Shown here: one piece after another, positions 3,686 to 44,989 of the stretch
Layout: each line of letters begins with the position of its first letter
How positions within the stretch are numbered: the stretch's first letter is position 1
From: Gemmatimonadota bacterium
GTDB taxonomy: Bacteria > JAAXHH01
Assembly: GCA_009838645.1 (NCBI GenBank)
Contig: VXRC01000024.1
Coordinates: 18,494 to 82,493 of the forward strand
Length of the DNA stretch: 64,000 bases
Direction of reading: 5' to 3'
The notes under the pieces: generated by a model
Told to the model about the DNA's origin: nothing
Databases searched by the model: none
The model's input: only the letters and a program-made list of their open reading frames with translations
Made by a program: the position numbers and the translations under genes

Positions 3686-6445
3686 GTGCCTGCCTGCCGG
3701 TTCAAAGATATCGCGCGCCTGGCCGAACCCGGCGACAACGTGGCCATCGTCTCCCGGCGTCTGGAAGCGGGAACGGACGTGAGAGACGACGCCGGCGCGT
3801 CCTTCTCCCTCGCCCATACCTTGCTGGAAGGGCACCGGTTCGCCGTCCAGCCCATACCCGCCGGGGAGTTCGTCCTGTCCTGGGGTCTGCCCTTCGGCCG
3901 GGCGACCCGGGACATCGCGCCCGGCGACTACCTCTGCAACCCGGACATCCTCGACGCGCTCCGCGTCCGAAAAGTCGATTTCGCCCTCCCGGACCAGCCC
4001 AATTTCGAAGACCGCGTAGTGCCCTACGAACTGGACGAATCCACCTTCAAAGCAGGCGAGCAGGTACCGCTCAGTAACCGTCCGCCGGAGTTCGACGGTT
4101 TCGACCGCGGTCCGGCGCGAGGTGTCGGGACCCGAAACTATATCATTCTGCTGGGCATTACGTCGCAGTCGACGGGTTTCGTGCGGCGCCTGGAATCGCT
4201 GCTGAAGGGCCAGGTGGATCGGTACCCGAACATCGACGGGGTGGTGGCGGTAGCCCATACCGAGGGCGGCTCGGGCGTGGATCCCAACAACCGGGAACTG
4301 GTGCTGCGGACACTGGCGGGTTTCATGGTCCATTCCAACGTCGGGGCGGTGCTTGCGGTGGACCGCGGCACCGAGTTCGTCTCGGACAGGATGCTCGAAA
4401 ACTACATGCGGCTCAACCGCTATCCATTGAACGATGTTCCCCACCGGTTCGAGACGCTCAAGGGCGGGTTCGAAGAGGACCTGGAGCGCTGCGCGGGGAT
4501 CGTCACCGGATGGTTCGAGACGGTCAACCGAGTTTCGCGGAAACCGGCTTCCGCGTCTCATCTCAACATCGTGCTTCAATGCGGTGGTTCCGATTCCTTT
4601 TCGGGCATATCGGGCAATCCCCTGGCCGCACTCGTGGCCCGGGAGATCATACGCTTCGGCGGGAAGGCCAATCTCGCGGAGACGGACGAGCTCATCGGCG
4701 GCGAGCCCTACGTACTGGACAACGTGCGGGACATCGAGACGGCCCGAACTTTCCTCCATATGATCGAGCGGTTTCAGGAACGCACGGCGTGGCACGGCCA
4801 GTCGGTGGACGCCAATCCGTCCGGCGGCAACAAGCTGCGGGGAATCTACAATATCGTGCTCAAGTCCATCGGCGCGGCCCGGAAGCGACATCCCGACGTA
4901 CGCCTCGACTACGCCATCGATTACGCGGTTCCGATGAAGGATCCGGGGTACTACTTCATGGACAGTCCGGGCAACGACCTGGAAGCCATCGCGGGGCAAG
5001 TGGCCTCCGGCGGCAATCTCATCTTCTTCATAACCGGGAATGGATCCATCACCAACTTCCCCTTCGTGCCGACGATCAAGTTCGTGACGACCACGAAGCG
5101 GTACGAGATGCTTTCGGGTGAAATGGACGTGAACGCCGGTGCCTACCTGGACGGCGTGTCCATGGAAGAACTTGGCGGGCAGACGCTCGATCTGACGCTG
5201 CGAGCGGCGTCGGGCGAGTTGACCCGCGGCGAGCGGGCGGGCCACAGCCAGACCCAGATCTGGCGCGACTGGCGGCAGACCGACGGAAGCCGGCTGCAGG
5301 ACCTGCGCGAACGTCCCGTGCCGGCGGGCAGGCCGCTGGAGGTCCGGTCGAACGGGGAATCGACGCCCCCGCCGGCTTTCAGCTTGCCCGTGTTCGAATC
5401 GAACGGATTGCGCGCCACAGAACGGATCGGCCTCATACTTCCCACCAGCCTGTGCTCCGGCCAGATCGCCCGCATAGCCGCGGAACGGTTGAGCGAAAAA
5501 GGCGTGGGGCAAGGCGCCGGCCTATCCCGTTTCGTCGCCCTGGTACACACCGAGGGATGCGGAGTTTCGGGCGGCGTCTCGGAGGAAATGTACATCCGCA
5601 CCATGGCCGGCTACCTGACCCACCCGATGACGGCGGCCGCCCTGCTCCTGGAACACGGATGCGAACGCACGCACAACGATTTCTACCGCCAGCAACTGGT
5701 CGACCGCGGCCTGGATCCCGCTAGTTTCGGCTGGGCCAGCGTGCAGCTCGACGGCGGCATCGAGAAGGTCATCGATCGCATAGAGCAATGGTTTAACGGG
5801 ACCCTGGACGAGTGCGCGGGTCCGGTCGCCGTCGAAGCCGGCCTGTCTACCCTCAGGTTGGGGGTGGCCACGGTAGGTTTGGCTGCCACGGCCGGTCCGG
5901 CTACGATCTTGTGTCCGGCTACCACGGCCGGTCCGGTTTCCGATGACGTTTCCGAAACGTTTTTTAAGTTGATCTTCGATGTCGTAGACGCGGGCGGCAC
6001 GGTCGTCGTGCCGGACAACGACGCGCTGCTCGAATACCCGGCTTTCATGCGGCGCCTGGAGGATGGAACCATATCCCCGACATTGTCCTATGGAGAGCCC
6101 GCTTCGGTACCTGGGCTTCACGTCATGGAGACGCAGACAGCCCACTGGGTAGAGACCCTGACCGGGCTGGGCGCGGCCGGCGTGGAGCTGGTCGTCGCCG
6201 GCGTCGGCGGCCCCCCCCTGCCCGGCCATCCCATGATCCCGGTGCTGCAGGTCGCCGCGGACGACCTGGCCAGCCCTTTCCGTGAAGACGTGGATCTCAT
6301 CCTGACCGGGGAACCGTTGAATCGGTGCCAGGCCGTGCTGGACCTGATCCGGAATACGGCCGCCGGGAGGCATGCGCCGCGGACCGTGGTCGTCGGCAAC
6401 ACGGATTTCCAGATAACGCGCGGATTACTCGGCGTCTCGGTGTGA
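3686..6445 (+). CDS. Altronate/galactarate dehydratase (UxaA/GarD) family protein, 919 aa, with a second degenerate UxaA-like repeat at the C-terminus
   Basis: N-terminal SAF-like segment (DNVAIVSRRLEAGTDV), then the UxaA core (GTRNYIILLGITSQSTG...AVAHTEGGSG...NLIFFITGNGSITNFPFVPTIKFVTT). Residues ~570-919 repeat the pattern (GLILPTSLCSGQIARIAAERL...ALVHTEGCGVSGG...). The halves are joined by a low-complexity linker encoded by direct DNA repeats at 5860-5950. Confidence 0.6.
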   Translation: MPACRFKDIARLAEPGDNVAIVSRRLEAGTDVRDDAGASFSLAHTLLEGHRFAVQPIPAGEFVLSWGLPFGRATRDIAPGDYLCNPDILDALRVRKVDFALPDQPNFEDRVVPYELDESTFKAGEQVPLSNRPPEFDGFDRGPARGVGTRNYIILLGITSQSTGFVRRLESLLKGQVDRYPNIDGVVAVAHTEGGSGVDPNNRELVLRTLAGFMVHSNVGAVLAVDRGTEFVSDRMLENYMRLNRYPLNDVPHRFETLKGGFEEDLERCAGIVTGWFETVNRVSRKPASASHLNIVLQCGGSDSFSGISGNPLAALVAREIIRFGGKANLAETDELIGGEPYVLDNVRDIETARTFLHMIERFQERTAWHGQSVDANPSGGNKLRGIYNIVLKSIGAARKRHPDVRLDYAIDYAVPMKDPGYYFMDSPGNDLEAIAGQVASGGNLIFFITGNGSITNFPFVPTIKFVTTTKRYEMLSGEMDVNAGAYLDGVSMEELGGQTLDLTLRAASGELTRGERAGHSQTQIWRDWRQTDGSRLQDLRERPVPAGRPLEVRSNGESTPPPAFSLPVFESNGLRATERIGLILPTSLCSGQIARIAAERLSEKGVGQGAGLSRFVALVHTEGCGVSGGVSEEMYIRTMAGYLTHPMTAAALLLEHGCERTHNDFYRQQLVDRGLDPASFGWASVQLDGGIEKVIDRIEQWFNGTLDECAGPVAVEAGLSTLRLGVATVGLAATAGPATILCPATTAGPVSDDVSETFFKLIFDVVDAGGTVVVPDNDALLEYPAFMRRLEDGTISPTLSYGEPASVPGLHVMETQTAHWVETLTGLGAAGVELVVAGVGGPPLPGHPMIPVLQVAADDLASPFREDVDLILTGEPLNRCQAVLDLIRNTAAGRHAPRTVVVGNTDFQITRGLLGVSV

Positions 6446-6499
6446 TGCGAATGAGCCGCGGACGGCCTCCTCGGCGTCTCTGTGTGAAAGGAATCCCCC

Positions 6500-7546
6500 A
6501 TGCCTCGTGAAGTCGTACGGCCCGACAAACTCGATCTCGATTCCCCCGGGCGCCGGGACTACTGGGTCGCCCTCGAACACGATTCACTTTGGGCGGACCA
6601 TCTCATCCCCCTGACGGTCATGGTCGGACCCGACGTGCGCGAAGGCGAAGGCCTTCTCGCCACAGGTTCCAACCACGGCAACGAATACGAAGGACCGGTG
6701 GCGGTCAAGGGACTGCTCCAGGAGATCGAGCTGGCAGCCGTCAAGGGGCGGCTGATCTTCATTCCCGTGCTCAACCCCGCGGCCTTCCACGCGGGCCGCC
6801 GGGCCAGTGACGCCGATGACGGGGTCAACCTGAACCGGGCTTTCGTGGACGACGCCGGCACCTCACCGGCCCTCGCGGGCATCACCCACCGGATCGCCGG
6901 GTTCGTGCGGGAACATCTCTGGCCCCGCGTGCACGTCGTGACGGATATCCATTCCGGCGGGGCCGAGCTCGACTTCGCCCTGTGTTCCAGCTTTCACGAG
7001 GTGGATGACCCGGAACAGGCCGCCGTCATCGAAGACACGGCGCGCTGGTTCGGCACGCCCTTTCTGATGGCCTACCAGAACGAGACCCCCGGGCTGATGG
7101 TCAGCGAAGCCGAGCGGCTGGGAAAGATCACGATCGGCACCGAACTGGGCTGGGGAGAGTCGGTCAATCCGGACGGCGTACGGTACGCGCGGCACGGCAT
7201 TCGGGCCGCGGCCATCCACCACGGCCAGCTTGCCGGTGACATTCAGCCTATCGCCCATCACGCCGACGGCACCCAGAAACTGACGGCCATCATCGACCGG
7301 GCCTGTTACGTTCCCGCGCCTTTCCCGGGTCACTACGAACCGCTCATGGCCTGCGGCGCGCACGTGGCGGCGGGGCAGGTCGTGGGAAACCTGCACGACT
7401 TCTACCGCGTGGACGATCCGCCCTGGCCGGTACGGGCGGGCGTGGACGGTTTCGTGCTGTCCCAGGCGTTCCGCCAGCCGGTCAGGCAGGGCAGCCACAT
7501 CCTCGTCGTGGCCCAGGAATACCAGGCGCGGTCGAATTCCGCCTAA
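6500..7546 (+). CDS. Succinylglutamate desuccinylase/aspartoacylase (AstE/AspA) family zinc hydrolase
   Basis: 348-aa ORF with the HGNE zinc motif (GSNHGNEYEG) and overall M14-like AstE/AspA topology. Confidence 0.55.
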   Translation: MPREVVRPDKLDLDSPGRRDYWVALEHDSLWADHLIPLTVMVGPDVREGEGLLATGSNHGNEYEGPVAVKGLLQEIELAAVKGRLIFIPVLNPAAFHAGRRASDADDGVNLNRAFVDDAGTSPALAGITHRIAGFVREHLWPRVHVVTDIHSGGAELDFALCSSFHEVDDPEQAAVIEDTARWFGTPFLMAYQNETPGLMVSEAERLGKITIGTELGWGESVNPDGVRYARHGIRAAAIHHGQLAGDIQPIAHHADGTQKLTAIIDRACYVPAPFPGHYEPLMACGAHVAAGQVVGNLHDFYRVDDPPWPVRAGVDGFVLSQAFRQPVRQGSHILVVAQEYQARSNSA

Positions 7547-7617
7547 TCGATCGCGACCAGTGGGCAGTCGTCCAGCCATCAGCCGGCCAGTCGGCCATCG
7601 AAACCTGCGTAATCGCA

Positions 7618-8235
7618 TTGAAGAACACGGAGGCCCGCACGCAACGACTCGAAGACCATCCCGACCGGCTGAAGTGGAACGCAAGGTACCTGGCGCCGAA
7701 GCGCTTGGCGCCCAAGGGTTTCTGCCCGCTGTACGACCGGGCGGCGGTCCTGGGATATCCGGACGGTCCCGTACTGGAACTCGCCTGCGGCCTGTCGAAC
7801 CAGGCCCTCGCCCTGGCCGGCGACGGACGCGACGTGCTTGCTGTCGACATATCAAACGTGGCCCTGGACCGTCTGCGTACGGAGGCGGCGAAAAGGGGCA
7901 TCGGGTCCCGACTGACCTGCGTGGAAGCGGACCTGGTTTCCTGGCGTCCGCCCGTCGGTCGCAAGTTCGCGCTCGTGATCTGCGTGATGTACTGGGAGGA
8001 GGCGGTCTTCGACTATGCCTGGCCCGTGGTCGCCGACGGCGGACTCATCGCCTGGCAGGGCTTTACCCTGGACCACCTGAGGTACCGGCCCTCGCAGAAC
8101 CCGGACTGGTGCTTCAAGGCGGATGAACCCGCGAGTCGGCTACCCGCCGGCGAGTATACCGTGCTGCACGAAGAGGACGTGGACGAAGGCCACCGGGTGA
8201 TCCGGCGCATGGTGGCCAGGAGGAACCGAAGCTGA
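7618..8235 (+). CDS. Class I SAM-dependent methyltransferase
   Basis: 205 aa with a glycine-rich SAM motif (VLELACGLSNQALALA) and an acidic residue (VLAVDIS) typical of the Rossmann MTase fold. Confidence 0.55.
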   Translation: MKNTEARTQRLEDHPDRLKWNARYLAPKRLAPKGFCPLYDRAAVLGYPDGPVLELACGLSNQALALAGDGRDVLAVDISNVALDRLRTEAAKRGIGSRLTCVEADLVSWRPPVGRKFALVICVMYWEEAVFDYAWPVVADGGLIAWQGFTLDHLRYRPSQNPDWCFKADEPASRLPAGEYTVLHEEDVDEGHRVIRRMVARRNRS

Positions 8236-8285
8236 GGTCCGGCCAACTGACATCCGGCCAGCTGAGATCCAGCGAGGAGACGTAC

Positions 8286-9206
8286 ATGCAGGTACAACGA
8301 ATCGCCATATTGAGCCCGGGAGAGATGGGCCATTCCGTGGGGCGGTGCCTCCAGGCGGGCGGCTTCGACGTGGCCACCTGCCTGACGGACCGGAGCGAAC
8401 GAACTCGCACGCTGACGGCGGCCGCGGGCATCCGGGACGAGCCGGACCTGGACAAACTGGTCCGGGACACGGACCTGATCCTGGCCATCCTCGTGCCCGA
8501 CCAGGCCCGGGCCCTCGCCGGCCAGGTGGCGGAGGTGATGAAACGGACCGGGTCCTCGAGACGGACCGGGTCCTCGCCGGCCTACGCCGACTGCAACGCC
8601 ATCTCCCCGGATTCGGCGCGGGAGATCGACCGGGTCGTCACCGCCGCCGGAGGCCGCTTCATCGACGCGGGCATCATCGGCGGTCCACCCGGCGCGGACG
8701 AAAAGACGCGCTTCTACGCTTCCGGCCCCCACGAGGCCATACTCACGCAACTGGACGGCCACGGCATCCTCGTCCGGCCGCTGGGCGGCGAAGTGGGCCG
8801 GGCGTCGGGCATCAAGATGTGCTATGCCTCGGTCACCAAGGGGACCTCCGCCCTCTATGCCGCGGCGCTGACGGCCGCCGAAGTCATGGACCTGAGCGAG
8901 GAACTGCTGGCGGAATTCGCCGAAAGCCAGGGGCAGCGTCTCAAGGCGATGGGCGGCGTAAACAGCCTGTCGGCCAAGGCCTTCCGCTGGATCGGTGAAA
9001 TGCAGGAGATCGCGGCGACGTACGAACGGGCCGGGGTATCGCCCGGTTTTCACGAAGGCGCCGAGCACATCTTCCGCCTCATCGCCGAAAGTCCCATTGG
9101 CCACGAACGGCCCGAGACCGTGGACCGCAACCGCACCCTGGAGGAAACCGTGGCCATCTTTGCGGACGAGGCGCGGCGGCGGGCACGCGAATCCGGGAAA
9201 GGGTAA
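8286..9206 (+). CDS. NAD(P)-binding oxidoreductase: 6-phosphogluconate-dehydrogenase-like N-domain with a DUF1932-type C-domain
   Basis: N-terminal Rossmann motif (RIAILSPGEMGHSVG), family-like C-terminal domain. Contains a short in-frame duplication (RTGSSRRTGSSP, 8547-8587). Confidence 0.5.
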   Translation: MQVQRIAILSPGEMGHSVGRCLQAGGFDVATCLTDRSERTRTLTAAAGIRDEPDLDKLVRDTDLILAILVPDQARALAGQVAEVMKRTGSSRRTGSSPAYADCNAISPDSAREIDRVVTAAGGRFIDAGIIGGPPGADEKTRFYASGPHEAILTQLDGHGILVRPLGGEVGRASGIKMCYASVTKGTSALYAAALTAAEVMDLSEELLAEFAESQGQRLKAMGGVNSLSAKAFRWIGEMQEIAATYERAGVSPGFHEGAEHIFRLIAESPIGHERPETVDRNRTLEETVAIFADEARRRARESGKG

Positions 9207-35911: not shown

Positions 35912-36206
35912 GTGAGAACTCCTTTCATGCCGCATCAAATCGCATCTGCGCATACACCGGCAAGAACGGACCGGTACCTGCTACAGGCTCGTTGAGCTAC
36001 AGGATCATTGAGCAGGTTCCTTTCGAAAGAAGAAACCTAATTCTGAATTTTGTGGGAATAGAATCGGCGACGGCGGAGTCTAATCGGTAGGCAGCGGCAA
36101 CCGCTCGGATCGATCTCCGGCACTTTCGTGAGGCGTTAACGGACCGCGCCGGCCGACAGTCCGCCCGATGCTGACCATATTGTTCCGGCCATTCGAGGAA
36201 AGCGGG

Positions 36207-36797
36207 ATGAGGGAAGATGCCTTGACGGACGAAGCACTGGTCGACGCCGCCCGCGATGGCAGCGAGGACGCCTTCCGCACCCTGGTGGAACGATACGAAG
36301 GCCGCGTGGCGTCCGTCGTGATCCGCATGCTGGGGAACACCCCCGAAGCCGAGGACGCGGGGCAGGAGACTTTCATCCGGTTCTATCGAGGCTTGCATGG
36401 ATTCCGCGGTCAGGCGTCGGTCGGCACCTACCTGACGCGGATCGCCATCAACCTGTCGCTCACCGAACTGAGAATACGCCGGCGCCGTTCGATCTTCGTC
36501 CCCTTCACACCGCCGGGCAGGGAACACGACGCGCCGGAACTGGAATATGCCGACCCGGCGGCCAGCGCAGAATACGACGACACGGCCGACCGGATTCAGG
36601 CGGCGCTGAACCGATTGAAGCCCGAATTCCGTTCCGTGATCGTACTCCGGTTGATAGAGGGCTACTCGACGAAAGAAACCGCCGAGATCCTGGGCTTGCC
36701 CGTCGGGACGGTACTGTCCCGCCTGAGGAGGTCCCAGGAGAAACTGAAACGCATGCTTATTTCCTCTAACAGGGAGCTTGTCCATGAAACGGTCTGA
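36207..36797 (+). CDS. ECF-type RNA polymerase sigma factor (sigma-70 family)
   Basis: Region-2 and region-4 motifs (FRTLVERYEGRVASVVIRMLGN, YSTKETAEILGLPVGTVLSRLRRSQEKL). GAGGAAAGCGGG precedes the ATG at 36207. Confidence 0.75.
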   Translation: MREDALTDEALVDAARDGSEDAFRTLVERYEGRVASVVIRMLGNTPEAEDAGQETFIRFYRGLHGFRGQASVGTYLTRIAINLSLTELRIRRRRSIFVPFTPPGREHDAPELEYADPAASAEYDDTADRIQAALNRLKPEFRSVIVLRLIEGYSTKETAEILGLPVGTVLSRLRRSQEKLKRMLISSNRELVHETV

Positions 36798-37242
36798 ACT
36801 GGATCTGATGTACCGGTCGCTGGATGCGTCCCTGACGCCCGGTGAACAAAGCCGACTGGACGAGGCGTTGCGGCGCGATCCCGGCCTGCGGGACGAATAC
36901 GAGCGACTGGTCCGGCTGCGAAGCCAGGTCGAAAACCTGGAATCGCCCTCGTTCCGGGCGGATTTCTCCCAACGCGTCATGGAACGCCTGGCGGCGGAAT
37001 CCACGGTTATTCCGGCGTCGAATCCTGAAGGTGGGACAACGCCTGAATTCGAGGACGCGCTGTCCCTCATGTTCCGCAAAGTGGCGGTGGCCGCTTCGGT
37101 CGCTGCCGTCCTGCTGTTGACCTACAACCTGGCCACGTCCGACAGCGTCTCCATCACCACGTCGTTCGGACTGACCGAGGAACTGTATCCTGAAGACCTG
37201 TACGACGCGCGGATCGCGCTGGAATCGGAGGGCGAATTATGA
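36784..37242 (+). CDS. Putative anti-sigma factor (single TM)
   Basis: Overlaps the sigma-factor stop. About 150 aa with one TM helix (VAVAASVAAVLLLTYNL); position typical of a cognate anti-sigma factor. Confidence 0.45.
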   Translation: MKRSELDLMYRSLDASLTPGEQSRLDEALRRDPGLRDEYERLVRLRSQVENLESPSFRADFSQRVMERLAAESTVIPASNPEGGTTPEFEDALSLMFRKVAVAASVAAVLLLTYNLATSDSVSITTSFGLTEELYPEDLYDARIALESEGEL

Positions 37243-37763
37243 ACATCCACCTGAAGACCGCGGCCATTCTGCTGGCCACGTTGATCATCGGCATGGTCTG
37301 CGGCGCGCTTATCCTGGGCGCCTTTGCCCGGGACCGCCTGCAACCTCCGCCCCAGGTGACCCGGGACCGCTTCGTGGAACGATGGGTCAGGATGGTGCGG
37401 CCGGACCCGGCGCAGCTGCAGAGGATCCGGGAAGTGGTGGGCGAGCATGAATCCGGATTCCGGGAGAACTACATGCGCCACCGGCAGGAGATGCAGGACC
37501 TGGTCGATTCATTGCACAGGGACCTGGAACCCATCCTTACCGAAGAGCAACTCGAGCGGATCAAGCGGATTCGCGAGGAACGCGAACGCGTCCTCGAGTT
37601 CCGTCGGGATGGCGATCGCGAGCCACGCCGGGGTCGCCCGGGGCCGTCCGGACGCAACCGGGCCGGCGAGCGGGGCCGAGGGGATCGCACTGACAGTAAT
37701 CGTTCTGAAGGGCGCGGGAGCGACGACCGTGCAGAAGGGAGCGGGAACGGGAGCGACCGTTGA
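37239..37763 (+). CDS. Periplasmic LTXXQ-motif protein, Spy/CpxP/ZraP family
   Basis: Signal/TM N-terminus, LTEEQ motif, helical body, R/G-rich tail. Confidence 0.5.
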   Translation: MNIHLKTAAILLATLIIGMVCGALILGAFARDRLQPPPQVTRDRFVERWVRMVRPDPAQLQRIREVVGEHESGFRENYMRHRQEMQDLVDSLHRDLEPILTEEQLERIKRIREERERVLEFRRDGDREPRRGRPGPSGRNRAGERGRGDRTDSNRSEGRGSDDRAEGSGNGSDR

Positions 37764-37929
37764 CTCCTCGTTCCGGCACGTCCGGCGTGGCCCGGGCAAT
37801 GTACGGATGTAAAGAAAGTCGGAATAAACCGCAACCGGCCACTGTCTAATCCTGTAGAGCAGCACGAAGACGATCTCCGGAGATCGCGGTTCATACATCC
37901 GCCAGCATTACCACGAAGGGAGCGACAAA

Positions 37930-38535
37930 ATGAAAAAGATCATTTCAGGAACCATCGCCGGCGCGCTGAGTATCGTCGTACTGACCTGGACTATTGTCGT
38001 ACTGGCCTGGGCTTCTGATGCGATGGGCCGGATCAGTCATGAGGATGCTGACGTGCTCGACGGAGTAGCTGAACTCGCGGCGGCCGGATCGTCCGGCGAG
38101 TTCTCCGACATCCTGGCAGACGATCTCACCGATGACGACGCGGATGACGTGCGGACGCGTCTGTCCCGGGGAGGATTGTCCAGTCTCGAACTTACGGACG
38201 AGCAGGAGGATAAGATCGAGACGCTGCGTTCCGCCTACACGCGGGAAATGATACAGCTTCGCGCCGATTCGAGACTCGCACGGGTCGATCTTCGCGAACT
38301 GATGAATGAGATCAGCCCGGACATCGACAGGGTGAAGGAACTGGCCGCGGCCGCTTCGGCGGCCCAGGGCGCCGTGTTCGAGCGAAGCGCGCTCTTCCGC
38401 GCCGAGTTCAAGAATGTCCTGACCCCGGAGCAGCAGGAGAACCTGCGTGAGTCATACCGCGACCGGCGCGACGGTCGCCGGGACTCCGGGGTGCGCGGGC
38501 GGCGCGACGGCCGCGAATCGCGCAACCGGCGTTGA
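37930..38535 (+). CDS. Periplasmic LTXXQ-motif protein, Spy/CpxP/ZraP family
   Basis: N-terminal TM/signal; LTDEQ and LTPEQ motifs. Confidence 0.5.
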   Translation: MKKIISGTIAGALSIVVLTWTIVVLAWASDAMGRISHEDADVLDGVAELAAAGSSGEFSDILADDLTDDDADDVRTRLSRGGLSSLELTDEQEDKIETLRSAYTREMIQLRADSRLARVDLRELMNEISPDIDRVKELAAAASAAQGAVFERSALFRAEFKNVLTPEQQENLRESYRDRRDGRRDSGVRGRRDGRESRNRR

Positions 38536-38625
38536 GCAGGTGTTGCGAGCTGAAGGAATTCGAAGCGCGTTCAGTGGTTTGACGCAGTGATTGTAGACGA
38601 ACACATGCCGCGGAAGGATCCAGGT

Positions 38626-38695
38626 CCGGCCGCGGCATTTGACCGCGGAATCTGGCCGCGACATTAAGCCGTGGAATCTGACCGCGGCATTCATT
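38626..38695. repeat. About three imperfect tandem copies of a ~20-26-nt unit (GGAATCTGRCCGCGRCATT...) in the intergenic region upstream of the third Spy-like gene
   Basis: ggaatctggccgcgacatt (38647-38665) and ggaatctgaccgcggcatt (38673-38691), plus the partial ccggccgcggcattt (38626-38640). Confidence 0.4.
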
Positions 38696-38727
38696 CGCCA
38701 GATTTGATCTTTAAAAGGAGTCGAAAC

Positions 38728-39174
38728 ATGAGATACCGTCTTCACCTGGCCATACTTGGCCTGATCCTGACCGCCTTTATCGCCAACGACGCGGCCGCAC
38801 AGCGAGGCGGATTTGGTCGCGGGGGCGGCCGAGGCCAGAACAGTGCCATGATAGAACGCATGCGGGCGGTAAGCACCTTCCCCGTCGACCGGATCTGGCA
38901 CGTGTTGAGCATCCGGATGGAAACCACCGACGAGCAGGTGCTGCAATTGCGCGCGGTCGTGAAGGAAGCCTCGTCTCAGAAGACCGCGCTGGTGGAACAG
39001 GCCACGAAGACCGAGGACTGGACCTGGCTGCGCGAGCAACTGGAAGCGAACGAGAAGCAGTTTAAGGAGAACCTGAAGAGCATGCTCTCCGCCGACGAGT
39101 TCAAAGCGTTCGAGCAACTGGCGGAGGAAGCCTCAAACCTGATGCCGGACAGGCAAGGTAGATCCAGGCGTTGA
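38728..39174 (+). CDS. Periplasmic Spy/CpxP-like helical protein
   Basis: Start MRYRLHLAILGLILTAFIANDAAAQ after AAAGGAG. Helical and charged body (TDEQVLQL). Confidence 0.45.
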   Translation: MRYRLHLAILGLILTAFIANDAAAQRGGFGRGGGRGQNSAMIERMRAVSTFPVDRIWHVLSIRMETTDEQVLQLRAVVKEASSQKTALVEQATKTEDWTWLREQLEANEKQFKENLKSMLSADEFKAFEQLAEEASNLMPDRQGRSRR

Positions 39175-39217: not shown

Positions 39218-40486
39218 TTATCCCGACCACCGTTCCATCTTCTCTTCATCCAGAACCATGCCCAGCCCCGGACCCTCGATAGGAGCGAGTTCACCGCCCT
39301 CGACGGTGAAGGGGTTGGCGCATACATCGTCCTGAAGCAAACCGGGCCCCACCAGGTCCGAGGGCACCTCGACGTTCGTCGATGAAACGGCGAGATGCAC
39401 CGACGCCGCGGTACCGGGTCCCAGTTCTATGGTGCTGCCCAGCAAGGCGGGCATGCCCGCGGTCTCCGCGGCGTGGAGCAGGCGGCTCGCGCGGCGAAGC
39501 CCGCCGGCCTGGCAGGGGACGACATTGACGATGTCCACGGCGCGGTGGCGGATCAGGGCCGTCAGGAAGGCGTCCCCGAGATCAGCGACATGCTCGATAA
39601 TGGGAATGGGGGAACGGTTGCGTACTTTCGCCAGCGCTTCGGCAATACCCTCGGCATCCGCTTCGATACGGGCGGGATCCTCCCGCGACATGGGCCGCGA
39701 TAGCGCGCGAATCGGCGTCTCGCACGCGTCGGCCCCGGCCTCCGCCATGTCGCGCAGCCTGGACAGGGCTTCGTCTTCCTCCCAGAAACCGCTGGCATCC
39801 ACCTTGATGTAGGCTACGGTTCCCGCGATCTTGCGAGCAAGCCTCACCCGCTCGAGGTCCCTTTCGTGGTCCTCGCCCACCTTGAGCTTGAAGGCCTTCA
39901 TGCCCGATCCCACCTGGTCGGCAACCTCCCGTTCGAGAGCCTGCAGTTCGTCCTCGAGCGTGGCGTCTCCGCGCAGGTAGGCCACCCAGGAAACGGATGC
40001 GGCGCGCCGGCACCGGCCGCCCAGGAGTTCGTACAACGGAAGGCCGTGCGTCTTTCCGACCAGGTCTAGCAACGCACATTCGACACCGAAGAGCATCAAC
40101 TGCCGCAGTTCGGGGTACCAGTCGCCGGGAAGCGCCTCGTCGACCCCGTCATAGAGGTTGCGCCACGCACGCACGTCGCCTCCGGCCAGCACGCCAGCGT
40201 CGACCAGCACGCCGGCCGACACGCCAGCGCCGCCCGGCACGCCAGTGTCGACCAGCACGCCGGACAACAGGTCCTGGAGCGTCGCCGGCGAAGGAGCGTC
40301 CATCCGCGGCGCGATATCGGAGACCTCGCCGATACCGGTCAGGCCGTCAGAAGTCGTCAATTCGATGATCTGGTAGGTGGACCGCCCGTGGTCGATGGTG
40401 GCCTTCAGTTGCTTGGGGTCCGCACAATAGGTGTCGTAGATGCGCGGGACGGCCACCTGGCGCACGCGGACGTCGGAGATTCGCAT
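39218..40486 (-). CDS. Enolase-superfamily enzyme (MR/MLE family) with an internal G/V/A low-complexity insert
   Basis: 422 aa with MR/MLE motifs (KLKVGEDHERDLERV, KVDASG, IIEHVAD). The insert VLVDTGVPGGAGVSAGVLVDAGVLAGGD is encoded by tandem DNA repeats near 40190-40260. Confidence 0.55.
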   Translation of the reverse strand: MRISDVRVRQVAVPRIYDTYCADPKQLKATIDHGRSTYQIIELTTSDGLTGIGEVSDIAPRMDAPSPATLQDLLSGVLVDTGVPGGAGVSAGVLVDAGVLAGGDVRAWRNLYDGVDEALPGDWYPELRQLMLFGVECALLDLVGKTHGLPLYELLGGRCRRAASVSWVAYLRGDATLEDELQALEREVADQVGSGMKAFKLKVGEDHERDLERVRLARKIAGTVAYIKVDASGFWEEDEALSRLRDMAEAGADACETPIRALSRPMSREDPARIEADAEGIAEALAKVRNRSPIPIIEHVADLGDAFLTALIRHRAVDIVNVVPCQAGGLRRASRLLHAAETAGMPALLGSTIELGPGTAASVHLAVSSTNVEVPSDLVGPGLLQDDVCANPFTVEGGELAPIEGPGLGMVLDEEKMERWSG

Positions 40487-40728
40487 TTCGGTATGTTACC
40501 GCCGTCGTGTTCCGGGGTCAATGGCATCTTCATTCGTCGTTCGCGCGGCTTCCCTGCCCGTTGCCGGGCGCATTCCGGCAGATCAAGTACGTGAATCGCC
40601 CGGACCGCCGGACCGCCTGGACCGCCTGGTTACGTACCGGTTTGCAACTTGCCAGCGGGGTTCGAAGTCTTTATCTTTAGAAAGCCAGAATCCGAACACA
40701 CATTCCGATTACACAGGGGAAGTACCTC

Positions 40729-42534
40729 ATGTCTCGACATATGAAACTGGTCTTGATGACCGGCTTGATCGCGCTGATGGGTGGATTTCTGCAGATCGGA
40801 CCGGGTGCGGAGCGTTCGGTGGCGACCGATCGCCTGCGTTCGGCCGATGACGCGGCGCGGATCACAAAAGGCGCAGTCAACGCGGAAAACACAGAAAATG
40901 CAGAACGAGCGATCCGGGAGATCACCGGACTGTTCGGCCCATTCGGTCCGGAGGAGGCCTACGCCCGCCGCGGTTTCGGCGGTTTTCGAAGTTCACGGTC
41001 CCTCTGGAATCGCCGCAGTTCATTTGGCCGGCGCAGCCCCTTCGCCCGGAGAAGCACGCCTGCCGCCACGCGCCAGACGCCGGCGCGCAGCACGTCGGCC
41101 GGGCAGCCCTCGGCCACCGCGGCGCGGTCGACCCGGGCAGGCGCCGCAACCGCCGGCCGGGCCACGGCGCGGTCTTCGGTCATGGGCCGGCGGGTCCAGA
41201 GCGAAACGGCGCGCCGGTCGCTGGCCACGCACCAGTCCAGGCAGGCCGGTTTCGCCCAGTCGTCCAATTCGGCCGCCAATACGAGCACCTACCGGGATAA
41301 GGGCCTCTACAACCGGGGCTCGCAGAACCGCACGTCCTATGACAACTACTACGCAGGCCGGGACAGTTATTACGGTGGCATGGGCTGGAGGACGCCGGGA
41401 TACGCCTTCATGTCATACCCCAGCTTCGGCATGTGGGACGCCCTGTTCATGTGGTCCATGCTGGACATGATGAGCAGCCGCCGTCATTACGCCGTGGCCC
41501 ATCACCACGCCAATGACCCGGGATACCAGGAATGGCGCGGCGAGGCCGAGCGCCTGGCCGAGGACAACGCGGAACTGCGCGCGAAGCTGGACGAGCTGGA
41601 CAAGCAGGTCGCCACGCTCGAAGGCACGCCGCGGGATCCCGAATACCTTCCGCCCGGCGTCACCCCGGCGATCGCACTGGCCGCCGAAGTCGTGGCCACC
41701 GCCGATCCGAACCAACCTCGCATCACGGTGAATACGGGGGTGGCGAACGGCAATTACCACCGATTCGGCCAGATCCTGCAGTCGCACCTGCCGGATTTCG
41801 ACGTGATGCTCGAGACGACGGCGGGTTCGGAGGAGAACCTGAACAACCTGGTCCAGAACCAGGTCGACGCGATCCTCGTGCAGAGCGACATCCTGAACTC
41901 CTACCTGCGCAGGAACCCTGACGCGGAAAACCAGCTGGTCGGACTGCAGTCGACCCTGTACACCGAGTACGTTCAACTGATCGTCAACGAGGACAGCGGC
42001 ATCGCGAGCGTGTCCGACCTCGAACCGAACACCCACATCGTGTACGTCGGCCCCCGGGGTTCGGGGACACACCGGGCCTGGGAGGGCTTCGTCCTGCAGG
42101 ATCCGAGGTACGGGGAATTCAATACGCGGTTCGCAGGCTACGAGGAAGCGTTGAGCCAGGTGGCGGGAGATGCCAACGCGGTCATGCTGTTCGTCGCCGG
42201 CCTCAACTCGGAACTGCTCAAGGATGCGGACCGGCAGTACGGACTGCAGTTGAGCATGGTCGCCGTGGACGAGCACTATTTCAGCACGGCCGTGGACCAG
42301 TTCGGCAACACGATCTACGAGGTGGCGACGATCCCCCACGAGACCTATCCCGAGCTGCAGGAAGGCTGGCTCTTCGGATATTTTGACAGCAGCGTGGAGA
42401 CACTGACGGTGGACGCCATCCTGATCCTGTCCAAGCGGTGGGTGGATACCTACGGCAGCAAGCCGATGACCCTCTTCGAAGACGCCCTGTGGAGGTCCAT
42501 CGACGACATCAAGCCCATCGTGGGCGAGGAGTAG
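40729..42534 (+). CDS. Secreted/membrane-anchored multidomain protein: N-terminal TM, R/S-rich disordered region, coiled coil, C-terminal TAXI-type (TRAP-associated) solute-binding-like domain
   Basis: 601 aa with a TM N-terminus (MSRHMKLVLMTGLIALMGGFLQIGPGA), an R/S/T-rich segment of ~150 aa, a coiled coil (AELRAKLDELDKQVATLEG), then ITVNTGVANGNYHRFGQILQSHLP...AGSEENLNNLVQNQVDAILVQSDIL matching the TAXI SBP pattern. Confidence 0.5.
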   Translation: MSRHMKLVLMTGLIALMGGFLQIGPGAERSVATDRLRSADDAARITKGAVNAENTENAERAIREITGLFGPFGPEEAYARRGFGGFRSSRSLWNRRSSFGRRSPFARRSTPAATRQTPARSTSAGQPSATAARSTRAGAATAGRATARSSVMGRRVQSETARRSLATHQSRQAGFAQSSNSAANTSTYRDKGLYNRGSQNRTSYDNYYAGRDSYYGGMGWRTPGYAFMSYPSFGMWDALFMWSMLDMMSSRRHYAVAHHHANDPGYQEWRGEAERLAEDNAELRAKLDELDKQVATLEGTPRDPEYLPPGVTPAIALAAEVVATADPNQPRITVNTGVANGNYHRFGQILQSHLPDFDVMLETTAGSEENLNNLVQNQVDAILVQSDILNSYLRRNPDAENQLVGLQSTLYTEYVQLIVNEDSGIASVSDLEPNTHIVYVGPRGSGTHRAWEGFVLQDPRYGEFNTRFAGYEEALSQVAGDANAVMLFVAGLNSELLKDADRQYGLQLSMVAVDEHYFSTAVDQFGNTIYEVATIPHETYPELQEGWLFGYFDSSVETLTVDAILILSKRWVDTYGSKPMTLFEDALWRSIDDIKPIVGEE

Positions 42535-42546
42535 CGCGAAGGCCCG

Positions 42547-43248
42547 ATGAGCTTTCACATCATTCGTTCCGTAGCGAAGAAGCAGGCGAAAGAGGCGGCT
42601 GGCTTCTTTCGAAAGAAACCCGTGCGGGTCGACCAGGATCTGCCCCTGGGCGTCGCCATCGACCGGCTGGTCGACATCGACGCCGTCGCGTCGTCCACTT
42701 TTACCGGCCTCGTACACTTCAACTTTCCATCCTTTCCCCTGGCCATCGAGGCGATCGGAAAGATCGACCTCGGCGAAGGGGCCATGGCCTACCGGTGCTA
42801 TCTCCAGGGCACCTCGGCCTTCCTCCAGGTGGTGTCGGACCACGGGGAGCCCGTGGAATGCCGCCTGTACGTGCTCGACCGGGATCTGTATCCCCATTCC
42901 GAGGAAGTCTGGGAGCTCTGGCTGAACGGCGAGAACGGCATCATCGGATCCCCGGAAGTGCTGCACGGCGACGGGGAGGAACGGAGCTACCAGCGGGAAT
43001 GGATGGACGGCGACGGGCAGTCGGCGCCGATACAGGTCGAAGAACGGATCATCCGCGACGCGTACGGAGAGCAGGTCTTCGAGGAAACCCAGCAGGCCAT
43101 GTCCTACTTCCGGGTGGCAAGCGGGGATCCCCACAACCCGGAAGATCCCGAACGCGAGGACGAATTCCTGTTGATCAGCGCGGGCGACGGCGTTATAGAA
43201 CTGTATCTGGGCGTGGCATTGATGCTCGAGGAAGTCACGGTTATTTAA
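42547..43248 (+). CDS. DUF2491/YjfK-like protein (tentative), partner of PspA-family proteins
   Basis: 233 aa, 13 nt after the previous gene. The segment AMAYRCYLQGTSAFLQVVSDHGEPVECRLYVL is reminiscent of YjfK-type proteins. Its N-terminus (MSFHIIRSVAKKQAKEAAGFF) resembles that of the downstream gene. Confidence 0.35.
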   Translation: MSFHIIRSVAKKQAKEAAGFFRKKPVRVDQDLPLGVAIDRLVDIDAVASSTFTGLVHFNFPSFPLAIEAIGKIDLGEGAMAYRCYLQGTSAFLQVVSDHGEPVECRLYVLDRDLYPHSEEVWELWLNGENGIIGSPEVLHGDGEERSYQREWMDGDGQSAPIQVEERIIRDAYGEQVFEETQQAMSYFRVASGDPHNPEDPEREDEFLLISAGDGVIELYLGVALMLEEVTVI

Positions 43249-43266
43249 ACGCGAAAGGATGAAAAA

Positions 43267-44037
43267 ATGATCTGGAAGTTTCTCTCCCGCGTCGGCAAGA
43301 AACAGGCCGGCAACGCCCTGGAGTCCTTCACCCAGGCCGTGGTGGCCTTCGACCCGGAAACCGCCTCCGAGGCGCAGATCTCCCTCATGGAAGAGGAACT
43401 CGACAAGCTCGGGAAGCGGGTCGGCAAGGCCGAGATGGACGTGAAGAAGGACCATGAAGAGACGCAGGCGCTCTTGACGCAGTACGACCGGTACCTGGCC
43501 GCCGCAGAACGGATCGAAGGCCAGCTCGAAGGGGCGGAAGAGGGCCAGCGTTCCAAGCTGGAGGAGAGCCTTGAAAAGCTGGTCGCGGAACTGGAGCGTC
43601 TGAACCCGGAGATCGAACGGGAACGCCAGGAGGACCAGGAAGCGGAGGCCTTCGCGACCGAACTGCGCCAGGCCTACGATGTGGCGGCGGAGAAGCTCAA
43701 GAAGGCGCAGGTCCAGCTGAAACAGGCCCAGCGCCGCATGGAGCAGGCCCGGATGAAGAAGGAACGGGCCCTCGAACGCGCAGAAGGCGTGCGGCAGGCC
43801 TCTGGGCTGAGCAGTTCAATGGGCGGGCTCGACACGGCCCTCAACGCCATGGACAAGGAAACGGAGAAGGCGGAGACGACCTCCCGTGCCGCAGAGCTGA
43901 AGATCGGCGCCTTCGGCCAGACCGAAATCTCCGACGATCCCAACATCGCGGCGGCCCTTGAAGCGGCCGACAAACCCGCGCTGCCCGCTTCTTCGACGCG
44001 GGACCGGCTGGCGGCCCTGCGTTCCAGGAAGTCCTGA
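43267..44037 (+). CDS. PspA/IM30 (phage-shock protein A/Vipp1) family coiled-coil protein, YjfJ-like
   Basis: 256 aa, all-helical and coiled coil. The N-terminal pattern (FLSRVGKKQAGNALESF...SLMEEELDKLGKRVGKAEMDV) parallels E. coli YjfJ/PspA (LFTLGKSFISQAEESI...ELDKAGKSRVDL). Confidence 0.5.
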   Translation: MIWKFLSRVGKKQAGNALESFTQAVVAFDPETASEAQISLMEEELDKLGKRVGKAEMDVKKDHEETQALLTQYDRYLAAAERIEGQLEGAEEGQRSKLEESLEKLVAELERLNPEIERERQEDQEAEAFATELRQAYDVAAEKLKKAQVQLKQAQRRMEQARMKKERALERAEGVRQASGLSSSMGGLDTALNAMDKETEKAETTSRAAELKIGAFGQTEISDDPNIAAALEAADKPALPASSTRDRLAALRSRKS

Positions 44038-44149
44038 GACCGCCGCAGGACCTGAAATCAAAGGCTCACCCGATGCGAAAAGCGGACGGTGGGCCTTTTC
44101 TTTAAATATGCCTTAGATAAGCCCACCGCACTCTCCCAGGAGGCAAACC

Positions 44150-44989
44150 ATGCCGGGAATCCTGTCCTCCCTCCTTGCGGCCGTACACCGTTTCGGTCCC
44201 TACGTACTGGCCGTCAACATGATCCTCTATTTCATCGAGTTGCAATATACCCAGACGCGCAGCAGCCTGGACGCCGGCGCCTGGGCGGGGTTCATCTGGA
44301 TCGAACGGGTCATCGCCGGGTTCTTCACCCTGGAGTACGTGTTGCGCATCAAGCTGGCGCCGCACAAGGGGAAGTACCTGCGCAGCGGGCTCGGGTTGAT
44401 CGACCTGGTCAGCATCCTGCCCTTCTGGATCGGATTCTATCCCGGCCTCACCCAGGAGCAACTCGGCCTGGTGCGCGGCGCGCGGACGCTCCGGCTGCTC
44501 AAGATGTTCCGTTACAGCCCCAAGCTGGCGGAGTTCGCCCGGTCTATGTACACCAACCGCGTCCGGGTCATCCCCATCTTCCTCATTACCATCATGTACC
44601 TGATGATCAGCTCCACCGTGATCTACGAGGTGGAACGCCGCGCCCAGCCGGAGGTATTCAATGTCTACGGCGACAGCATCTGGTGGGCCGTGGTGACCTC
44701 CACCACGGTGGGGTACGGGGACAAGTACCCGGTCACTCCCCTGGGTCAGGGGGCCACCGTCCTGATGATGATGGTGGGCATCGGTATCGTGGGCATGATA
44801 TTCGGGTTCTTCGCCGACAGCTTCCACGACTCCCGGCAACCGCTGGAACCGACGTTAATGGAGGAATACTGCAGAGGGGTTCGCGAAGAGGGGACGGAAG
44901 GCCGCACGGTGCAGGCCCTGCGGCAGACTCACCGCAGCAACCCGCAATTCCTGATCTTCGCCGATACGGTGGACCGATATATCGGTTAG
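44150..44989 (+). CDS. Voltage-gated potassium channel (6TM, Kv/KvAP-like)
   Basis: Selectivity filter TTVGYGD, S4-like segment LVRGARTLRLLKMFRY, six hydrophobic helices. Confidence 0.75.
   Translation: MPGILSSLLAAVHRFGPYVLAVNMILYFIELQYTQTRSSLDAGAWAGFIWIERVIAGFFTLEYVLRIKLAPHKGKYLRSGLGLIDLVSILPFWIGFYPGLTQEQLGLVRGARTLRLLKMFRYSPKLAEFARSMYTNRVRVIPIFLITIMYLMISSTVIYEVERRAQPEVFNVYGDSIWWAVVTSTTVGYGDKYPVTPLGQGATVLMMMVGIGIVGMIFGFFADSFHDSRQPLEPTLMEEYCRGVREEGTEGRTVQALRQTHRSNPQFLIFADTVDRYIG

Follow-up and report, generated by a model that had tools for sequence, protein, structure and literature searches.

A MID-TAXI protein, a DUF2491 protein and a divergent PspA-like protein encoded together in a Gemmatimonadota genome: a putative membrane-associated module

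What a TAXI-type solute-binding domain does in one operon with a DUF2491 protein and a PspA-like protein is the question raised by three co-directional genes at positions 40729-44037 of a 64,000-nucleotide stretch of Gemmatimonadota DNA (assembly GCA_009838645.1, contig VXRC01000024.1, positions 18,494 to 82,493 of the forward strand; the whole stretch is referred to below as the window). PspA, Vipp1 and the ESCRT-III proteins constitute a conserved machinery of membrane repair and remodelling. Apart from the classical Psp and Lia systems, little is known about how these proteins are recruited, and the branch formed by YjfJ and YjfK (DUF2491) has no assigned mechanism. It was found that the gene order of the window recurs in several bacterial phyla and that the invariant trio consists of a domain here called MID, DUF2491 and the PspA-like protein, the solute-binding domain not being part of the core. 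Taken as a whole, and with a probability that we put at roughly 0.55, the operon would encode a three-part membrane-associated module, which would provide a PspA-like membrane-maintenance protein with a trans-membrane sensor or anchor. The genes are the following (ORF, open reading frame; aa, amino acids):

40729-42534, + strand: gene 1, an ORF of 601 aa for an exported or anchored protein
42547-43248, + strand: gene 2, an ORF of 233 aa of the DUF2491/YjfK family, with a beta-rich domain after an N-terminal amphipathic helix
43267-44037, + strand: gene 3, an ORF of 256 aa from an unannotated family of about 250 aa, remote kin of PspA/IM30/Vipp1

Conservation and layout of the operon

The conservation of the three genes was evaluated in a genome survey with one genome per species, in which 80 loci with a gene-3 homolog were labelled with hidden Markov models built for this analysis. 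Since the genomes were drawn with the motif [FW]DPETASxA[QE], the sample is not unbiased, and narrower alignment subsets served as seeds of the collection scans, which biases the samples towards particular motifs. The 80 genome loci were distributed as follows:

65 loci: MID-TAXI gene, then DUF2491, then gene 3
3 loci: the same order, cut by a contig end
3 loci (Desulfovibrionales): DUF2491, then MID with a transmembrane helix, then gene 3
9 loci: gene 3 alone

DUF2491 was thus encoded just 5' of gene 3, either adjacent to it or with only the MID gene between them, at 71 of the 80 loci. The preliminary description of this locus would have been refuted if the trio were co-conserved in no other genome, an outcome that is decisively excluded by the 65 genomes out of 80 that hold it in full. 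An independent metagenome survey, seeded on MID and comprising 66 loci, resolved three architecture classes:

Class A, 32 loci: MID fused to TAXI, then DUF2491, then gene 3 (the type found in the window)
Class B, 14 loci: MID with a terminal transmembrane helix, then DUF2491, then gene 3
Class C, 20 loci: a single MID-transmembrane helix-DUF2491 protein, then DUF350, then gene 3

Wherever enough downstream sequence was available, gene 3 was present at 40 of 40 metagenome loci and DUF2491 at 38 of 40. Because MID occurs without TAXI in classes B and C and in the same operon context, TAXI is an accessory of one class. The module was found in phyla that include Gemmatimonadota/Latescibacterota, Thermodesulfobacteriota, Verrucomicrobiota and Alphaproteobacteria, its carriers including Gemmatimonadota/Latescibacterota genomes, Desulfomonilaceae, Syntrophaceae, Desulfovibrionaceae, Desulfoluna spongiiphila, Fundidesulfovibrio agrisoli and Akkermansiaceae, to which Bradyrhizobium and Belnapia were added by individual look-up. 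Gene 3 of the window is itself 100% identical to a gene of VXTP01000005.1, from a metagenome-assembled genome labelled Gemmatimonadetes bacterium SB0665_bin_8, and near-identical copies carry the label Candidatus Latescibacterota.

Stand-alone paralogs of gene 3 were also observed in other conserved contexts (loci L063, L070, L071 and L076, at about 4000-8800; L038-L040; L003). In Desulfomonile-like genomes such a paralog lies 3' of genes for a cation-diffusion-facilitator-like transporter and a zinc-ribbon protein, and in Pelagibius and Rhodospirillales it lies 5' of a gene for a DUF465-like small protein; in one Desulfomonile-like genome, MFD01872.bin.2.71, the stand-alone paralog and the full trio occur together. 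Additionally, the module was found on contigs classed as viral: a 545-kb IMG/VR contig (L166) holds the full MID-TAXI/DUF2491/gene-3 trio, and a 143-kb contig of 29% GC (L167) holds MID, DUF2491 and gene 3. The contig carrying the protein P0072, likewise classed as viral, also bears HNH and T4-like genes. Such occurrences may represent host regions included in provirus calls or genuine carriage by large phages.

Regarding the layout in the window, the untranslated gaps measure 12 nt between genes 1 and 2 and 18 nt between genes 2 and 3; the three-gene operon proposed earlier is borne out, and the distances of 13 and 19 nt given with it were coordinate differences. All three genes have a purine-rich stretch 5' of the start codon, and candidate signals were located at both ends of the cluster:

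40644-40677, + strand: promoter-like element 5' of gene 1, GCAACTT-N17-TCTTT overlapping TTGCCA-N17-TATCTT
44060-44104, + strand: terminator-like hairpin with a U tract 3' of gene 3, located by RNA folding

The promoter-like element came from a sigma-70-type scan and an ECF-like (extracytoplasmic function) motif scan and consists of consensus matches only. The ECF-like motif had one further site in the window (52992), and its scan gave no match upstream of the ECF-sigma gene described below. The hairpin has an 11-bp outer stem and a folding energy of -22.9 kcal/mol and is followed by UUUUCUUU, its z-score being just -1.77; it was missed by a simple terminator scan because its loop is long. The simplest reading of this layout is that the three genes form a single transcription unit. 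Immediately 5' of the promoter-like element, at 40597-40629, a short tandem repeat (CCGGACCG, or CGCCTGGAC) is present in about three to four copies, which could be an operator-like site or a chance feature of GC-rich DNA. An Rfam scan of the window gave no match, and among the PADLOC defence models genes 1 and 2 matched none and gene 3 gave just weak coiled-coil matches to SMC-like proteins. An antisense ORF of 680 aa (41413-43455, - strand) extends across genes 1 to 3, and nothing independent supports it; ORF length alone is unreliable here, because spurious long ORFs on the opposite strand are common in sequence of 62-65% GC.

The three proteins and their predicted topology

Gene 3 has the following landmarks:

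43267-43344, + strand: helix alpha0 of gene 3 (AlphaFold2 helix 3-26)
43351-43356, + strand: invariant D29-P30 (family alignment)
43369-43800, + strand: predicted helical hairpin, aa 35-178 (AlphaFold2 model)
44002-44019, + strand: C-terminal DRLAAL motif (family alignment)

In a first hhalign test against a six-sequence PspA/Vipp1/YjfJ profile, the match reached a probability of 76.6% (P 2e-5, 199 columns), with a score of 42.1 against 13.9 for the reversed profile and at most 17.3 for 30 column shuffles. In a second test, in which 178 members of the gene-3 family were compared with a PspA profile of just 12 sequences, the probability was 92% in local mode (P 5.5e-7, 200 columns) and 96.4% in global mode, and the score of 52.5 compared with 16.3 for the reversed profile and at most 16.7 for 20 column shuffles. 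The sources of the PspA profile were PspA and YjfJ of Escherichia coli, Vipp1 of Synechocystis and eight PspA homologs from viral contigs; a protein search seeded with YjfJ provided no diverse PspA profile, all of the matches listed being at least 86% identical. As a calibration, YjfJ and gene 3 were each compared with a YjfJ-free profile of 10 PspA/Vipp1 sequences, on which YjfJ scored 45.2 (88%) and gene 3 scored 43.0 (80%). The alignment of the two profiles is collinear from end to end and the family landmarks superpose, MG(G)IFGFL falling on PspA MGIFSRF, the invariant DP on the EDP of PspA, and the C-terminal DRLAALK on Vipp1 DELAALKA and on DRLAALKAK of the PspA homologs from viral contigs.

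The structural prediction is consistent with this relation. The AlphaFold2 model of gene 3 is all-helical, as had been proposed for this protein, with a mean predicted local distance difference test (pLDDT) value of 76 that exceeds 90 in the core, and its helices span residues 3-26, 35-87, 92-178, 188-215, 225-232 and 244-255, pLDDT being low at 3-26. In the model, the order of the helices appears to be that of PspA and ESCRT-III, namely alpha0, an alpha1-alpha2/3 hairpin, alpha4 and alpha5. When the model was searched against the PDB with Foldseek, the top nine matches were all Vipp1 or PspA structures (E 0.013 to 0.06). The N-terminal consensus of the family is MGGIFGFLRSFGKEK, and its hydrophobic moment over 11 residues (0.82) may be compared with those of PspA (0.57) and Vipp1 (0.83); an amphipathic alpha0 and a conserved (E)DP turn, as in the PspA superfamily, are present, and the invariant positions of the family include F5, D29-P30 and the C-terminal R-L-A-A-L. 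We conclude from these sequence comparisons that gene 3 probably belongs to a separate and deeply divergent branch of the PspA/IM30 superfamily, one that is seen by profile-profile comparison only.

The family is compact, and its members are often mislabelled. In the family census, an exhaustive profile search over 1.84 billion cluster representatives, 691 clusters (50% identity) were counted at E <=1e-3 and 528 at E <=1e-10, and one protein search gave 237 clusters at 90% identity. Precomputed Pfam annotation is blank in nearly all homologs, and the few names carried by the source records are COG-style mislabels such as "chromosome segregation ATPase". The family would represent a hidden PspA-like family that the domain databases miss, and its recognition corrects the labels of widespread genes.

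For gene 2, the relation to YjfK that had been suggested for it is well supported: the protein matches DUF2491 (PF10679) at 6e-18 (65.2 bits, cut-off 25) and E. coli YjfK by BLASTP at E 9e-8, and DUF2491 was matched by 20 of 20 aligned homologs, E. coli YjfK included. The alignment contains invariant Arg, Glu and Trp residues, and a search of PDB sequences with the DUF2491 profile gave no relative with a solved structure. The N terminus forms the following feature:

42547-42606, + strand: N-terminal amphipathic helix of gene 2, aa 1-20

DUF2491 partners encoded as separate proteins start with M-x-x-W-N-L-F-K-K-I-G-Q-K-K and gene-3 homologs with M-G-G-I-F-G-F-L-R-S-F-G-K-E-K, and the same kind of N-terminal helix is present in E. 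coli YjfK (MSGFFQRLFGK), YjfJ (MGILKSLF) and PspA (MGIFSRF). The N-terminal motif that the preliminary description had seen in common between genes 2 and 3 is thus real and conserved across phyla. Since the DUF2491 helix resembles alpha0 of the gene-3 family, PspA, YjfJ and YjfK, it may substitute for a covalent membrane tether.

Gene 1 is composed of a signal or anchor segment, a low-complexity region, the MID domain and TAXI, a plan kept in 17 aligned homologs from several phyla:

40741-40797, + strand: N-terminal hydrophobic segment, aa 5-23 (Kyte-Doolittle 19-residue mean 1.75)
40936-41337, + strand: low-complexity region rich in Arg, Ser, Thr, Ala and Gly, about aa 70-203 (composition)
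41338-41733, + strand: MID domain, about aa 204-335 (about 130 aa; alignments A6, A7 and A8)
41521-41619, + strand: coiled coil within MID, a helical heptad stretch at about aa 265-297
41734-42531, + strand: divergent TAXI-type (NMT1_3) solute-binding domain, aa 336-601

Hydropathy, composition and heptads thus recover the N-terminal hydrophobic segment, the R/S/T-rich region and the coiled coil that had been read from gene 1 before. By hydropathy, aa 5-23 constitute a putative Sec-type signal peptide or signal anchor, and gene 1 homologs have typical signal peptides with A-x-A-like end sites. In the 100%-identical copy L015 the region before MID contains 14% R, 13% S, 15% A, 10% G and 8% T; among homologs the low-complexity region is 170-230 aa long and, in other lineages, it is rich in Ser, Gly, Lys and Arg, with a repeated SGGY(S/A)(K/R)P. 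These repeats were observed in all three architecture classes (L042, L046, L049, L061, L096, L129, L133, L161, L163 and L122) and may represent a functional linear motif, for instance for contact with the wall or the outer membrane. The C-terminal tail of E. coli YjfM (SRGGYGRSSSARG) has a composition similar to that of the gene 1 low-complexity repeats.

MID opens with an aromatic-rich motif, Y..RD.YY.G.GW..P.YAF...P.FGMWDA.F.W.MLD, followed by H-x-x-DPGYQ-x-WR, the coiled coil and GTP-x-DP-x-YLPPGV. It corresponds to no Pfam family, its profile drew coiled-coil noise only from the PDB, and similarity to E. coli YjfM was undetectable; MID is an undescribed domain. The C-terminal portion, of about 270 aa, matches NMT1_3 (PF16868) at 6e-13 with 49.5 bits against a cut-off of 27, as do 13 of the 13 TAXI-bearing homologs of alignment A6, and it carries the usual TAXI motifs GS-EN, VQSD and GSGT. 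Weak sequence matches were obtained with the solved TAXI proteins 8u79, 1us4, 9ibo and 8s4j (E 3e-5 to 7e-4), the direct matches to solved TAXI proteins extending as far as 3e-3. The earlier assignment of this domain to TAXI is kept on the strength of PF16868, as a divergent member, and the statement that a TRAP permease is lacking nearby is upheld: 21 window ORFs, each of 322 aa or more, were scanned, and none matched a TRAP permease family (DctM or DctQ), nor did any of the called genes around the gene 1 homolog of L004. In that 1.47-Mb contig (L004, 3066-5977) the gene 1 homolog is split into two called genes of 275 and 383 aa, and the N terminus of DUF2491 is found on its own, as a 57-aa ORF of a different frame; these split genes look like frameshifts or assembly errors and not like another architecture.

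The side of the membrane that each part faces is indicated by the fusion proteins. In Belnapia mucosa and at the 20 class C loci, a single polypeptide contains a signal peptide, a low-complexity region, MID, a transmembrane helix with an Arg cluster, and DUF2491, and its gene is followed by DUF350 (YjfL family) and then by gene 3; in Belnapia a gene for an OmpA-domain lipoprotein lies immediately 5'. Class B MID proteins end in a C-terminal transmembrane helix followed by RRR, and verrucomicrobial class A MID-TAXI proteins have a C-terminal transmembrane helix after TAXI. Taken together with the positive-inside rule, the MID-transmembrane helix-DUF2491 fusions would place MID, and with it TAXI, in the periplasm and DUF2491 in the cytoplasm, and the same arrangement is predicted for the lineage of the window.

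Neighbouring genes, proposed function and competing explanations

The genes that flank the operon in the window are the following:

36168-36797, + strand: ECF sigma factor
36778-37242, + strand: putative anti-sigma gene, overlapping the ECF sigma gene, with a weak RseA_N match
37239-37763, 37930-38535 and 38671-39174, + strand: three small genes, the middle one with LTXXQ and Metal_resist matches (Spy/CpxP-like)
39218-40486, opposite strand: enolase-superfamily gene, between the ECF/Spy cluster and gene 1
44150-44989, + strand: voltage-gated-type K+ channel of 279 aa (Ion_trans and Ion_trans_2, TVGYGD filter)

The preliminary description had placed the operon next to the ECF-sigma/Spy cluster (36168-39174), and the cluster is indeed near, but an enolase-superfamily gene on the opposite strand intervenes and the adjacency is confined to one clade, synteny with the module being seen only in Gemmatimonadota/Latescibacterota. 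A promoter motif common to the ECF-sigma operon and gene 1 was searched for and not found. The K+ channel, which is set off from gene 3 by the terminator-like hairpin, follows gene 3 at 23 of 23 loci of the same clade and at 0 of 57 loci outside it. K+ channels are nevertheless encountered repeatedly close to pairs of DUF2491 and a PspA-like gene, as in YjfJ operons (PMC11237479); on the contig carrying P0072, a gene for a GluR0-like ligand-gated K+ channel lies two genes 5' of a DUF2491/gene-3 pair. Because both are restricted to one clade, the ECF-sigma/Spy cluster and the K+ channel were rejected as core parts of the module.

In the module proposed here, gene 3 would attach to the inner membrane from the cytoplasmic side by means of its N-terminal amphipathic helix and, like PspA and Vipp1, would oligomerise there and so stabilise or remodel the membrane. 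The DUF2491 protein encoded by gene 2 would be its cytoplasmic partner, the counterpart of YjfK beside YjfJ, presumably kept at the membrane in this lineage by its own PspA-like amphipathic helix. Gene 1 would be exported, so that periplasmic MID, extended by TAXI, would constitute the sensing or anchoring half and DUF2491 the cytoplasmic half, which would connect the periplasmic part to the PspA-like effector by physical contact with gene 3. In class A, TAXI would bind a ligand and add ligand sensitivity. A role in membrane stress or membrane maintenance is predicted for the module on these grounds. A bolder version, which we hold as tentative and somewhat doubtful, is that of a ligand-responsive trans-envelope switch, in which a chemical or mechanical cue received by periplasmic MID-TAXI is passed across the inner membrane to DUF2491, which recruits or releases the divergent PspA/IM30 member. 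If it were true, DUF2491 would receive its first assigned role, as a PspA adaptor, and a solute-binding domain would be seen for the first time to control a PspA-type membrane-remodelling protein.

Several observations weigh against the module as proposed. As to its constancy, gene 3 stands alone at the nine genome loci listed above, two MID-TAXI metagenome loci lack DUF2491, and in L097 (3341-4765) a distant gene-3 homolog, P0113, follows a transmembrane Tim44-like protein (PF04280) and not MID or DUF2491. Tim44-like domains bind membranes, so the Tim44-like protein of L097 may be an alternative anchor. As to the topology, signal peptides and membrane orientation were assigned from hydropathy and the positive-inside rule only, and hydropathy gives no second transmembrane segment in gene 1 of this lineage by which a periplasmic protein would signal to its cytoplasmic partners. 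The C-terminal domain of gene 1 falls under the cut-off of the TIGR02122 TAXI model (2.4e-20; 72.6 bits, cut-off 84.35), and the AlphaFold2 model of gene 2, built from a 17-sequence alignment, reached a pLDDT of just 37. As to gene 3, a Pfam scan with an E limit of 0.1 gave no match to PF04012 (PspA_IM30), the 25 most frequent families in scans of 38 gene 3 relatives (E up to 1) do not include PF04012, NCBIfam gave no PspA model and only coiled-coil noise for gene 3 and 11 relatives, and PDB sequences searched with the single sequence and with the family profile yielded no PspA or Vipp1 and, again, coiled-coil noise only. Compared by hhalign with YjfJ, the gene-3 family gave a probability of 0.3% for the single sequence and of 0.2% (local) and 3.2% (global) for a six-sequence YjfJ profile of low diversity (at least 86% identity). 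Gene 3 was consequently rejected as a YjfJ ortholog, at 0.2% against the YjfJ-only profile, and, having no match, as a member of PF04012 as currently defined. The preliminary description had regarded gene 3 as a PspA/IM30-like protein of the YjfJ kind and had named its absence from that family in profile searches as an outcome that would speak against this; taken to the letter, Pfam and NCBIfam gave that outcome. The kinship to PspA/IM30 is retained through profile-profile comparison, but not in the searches of Pfam, NCBIfam and PDB sequences, and the likeness to YjfJ is lost.

The absence of PspA_IM30 from the Pfam and NCBIfam results, in which only coiled-coil noise (SMC, EzrA, COG6) appeared, would suit an explanation in which gene 3 is a generic coiled-coil scaffold with no link to PspA and the module is an envelope-tethering or cell-wall complex around the exported low-complexity-MID protein, for example a membrane-wall spacer. 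The OmpA-domain lipoprotein directly 5' in Belnapia and the SGGYSRP-type repeats of the exported region also point in that direction. We regard this as unlikely: composition-preserving controls reach a third of the profile-profile score, the alignment is collinear across about 200 columns, the genuine family member YjfJ obtains a comparable score, and an MGIF-type helix, a DP turn and a D-x-LAALK motif are present at equivalent positions; moreover, the nine best Foldseek matches are all Vipp1/PspA, and YjfJ-type PspA likewise has DUF2491 and DUF350 as partners (PMC11237479). The K+ channel suggests another explanation, that the module deals primarily with small molecules or with ion homeostasis. 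DUF2491 would then be an enzyme or ligand binder for whatever TAXI senses or captures (for instance a carboxylate, an amino acid or a polyamine-related compound), gene 3 would have a supporting role in membrane protection, and the channel would be part of the function. This explanation is quite unlikely in our judgement: the 23 of 23 clade loci with a TVGYGD channel 3' of gene 3 are offset by 0 of 57 outside the clade and by the hairpin between channel and gene 3, and the enzymatic role predicted for DUF2491, whose gene shares YjfJ operons with a K+ channel and polyamine-ligase genes (PMC11237479), has to be set against the absence of polyamine genes among the window ORFs scanned. Likewise, the invariant Arg, Glu and Trp of DUF2491 and the GluR0-like ligand-gated K+ channel near another DUF2491/gene-3 pair favour such a system, but no catalytic motif or structural relative was identified for DUF2491, and two of the three architecture classes do without TAXI.

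That gene 1 is an ordinary TAXI-TRAP binding protein, for a permease encoded elsewhere, and lies beside genes 2 and 3 by coincidence is very improbable. Orphan solute-binding proteins are common in general, and the C terminus is recognisable as TAXI/NMT1_3 with its usual motifs, but the gene order is shared by 65 of the 80 genomes, across several phyla, and by 32 metagenome loci, with no permease seen in the scanned window ORFs. About 330 aa of conserved low-complexity and MID sequence precede TAXI, unlike in TRAP binding proteins, and MID also exists apart from TAXI, both in equivalent operons and as a fusion with DUF2491.

The three-part membrane-associated module thus remains the reading that we favour, and its interest extends beyond the window to a widespread system of several bacterial phyla, found described nowhere in the literature searched. 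The MID-transmembrane helix-DUF2491 fusions tie DUF2491 to a trans-membrane unit and indicate which side each part faces. Some carriers are cultured organisms (Desulfoluna spongiiphila AA1, Fundidesulfovibrio agrisoli SG106, Belnapia mucosa and Bradyrhizobium sp. USDA 4341), in which the function of DUF2491 and the link between PspA-like proteins and periplasmic cues are directly testable.

Comparison with known systems

The TAXI-TRAP binding proteins, such as the Thermus thermophilus GluBP (1us4/1us5), 8s4j and 9ibo, belong to the same family as the C-terminal domain of gene 1 by PF16868, with weak matches to the PDB entries. Unlike them, the TAXI domain of gene 1 has no partner permease, falls short of the TIGR02122 cut-off, stands behind a signal peptide, a low-complexity region and MID, and is encoded in a non-transport operon, related operons doing without TAXI altogether. 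With Vipp1/IM30 of cyanobacteria and chloroplasts (7o3w, 6zvr and 8qbw) gene 3 gave no match at E 1e-3 and low TM-scores of 0.24-0.45; its hairpin arm alpha2/3 is about 15 residues longer, and the genomic context is unrelated.

In the classical Psp and Lia systems, PspA acts with the membrane partners PspB and PspC, and LiaH with LiaI. The module resembles these systems in that a helical peripheral PspA-type effector would be encoded together with a membrane-anchored partner, and in the N-terminal amphipathic helix and the C-terminal motif of gene 3, with a predicted hairpin between them that appears to follow the same layout. On the other hand, no homologs of PspB, PspC, PspF, LiaI or LiaF are present here, the likeness in sequence appears by profile-profile comparison only, and the predicted anchor consists of periplasmic MID and cytoplasmic DUF2491.

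The closest known arrangement is the E. coli yjfIJKLMC operon, in which YjfJ is of the PspA family, YjfK is DUF2491, YjfL is DUF350 and YjfM is a DUF1190 lipoprotein. As in that operon, a PspA-superfamily gene lies beside a DUF2491 gene, both with a short N-terminal amphipathic helix; a DUF350 (YjfL family) gene is present, here in class C and between DUF2491 and gene 3; and an exported protein has a Ser/Gly/Arg-rich low-complexity region, which in E. coli is the C terminus of YjfM. However, the order is reversed, the DUF2491 gene here preceding the PspA-like gene; gene 3 is not specifically YjfJ-like and is unrecognised by PF04012; the window operon has no YjfI/CesT-like chaperone, DUF1190 or ATP-grasp polyamine ligase; and the exported partner, which has no detectable similarity to YjfM, carries MID, fused to TAXI or not.

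In the previous study of PspA neighbourhoods, the yjfIJKLMC type constitutes the third group, DUF2491 is found in YjfJ-type PspA operons with DUF350, DUF1190, a polyamine ATP-grasp ligase and a K+ channel, the channel near DUF2491 being ligand-sensing, and an enzymatic role is predicted for DUF2491 (Ravi et al. 2024, PMC11237479). This was the only paper in our literature search to mention DUF2491; TAXI/NMT1, Latescibacterota and Gemmatimonadota are not mentioned in it, and the search returned no paper connecting TAXI with PspA and none describing the arrangement, in keeping with the earlier impression that it is undescribed. The pairing of DUF2491 with PspA is already known (PMC11237479), and the novelty of the PspA-type module described here lies in the branch to which its effector belongs and in its periplasmic partner.

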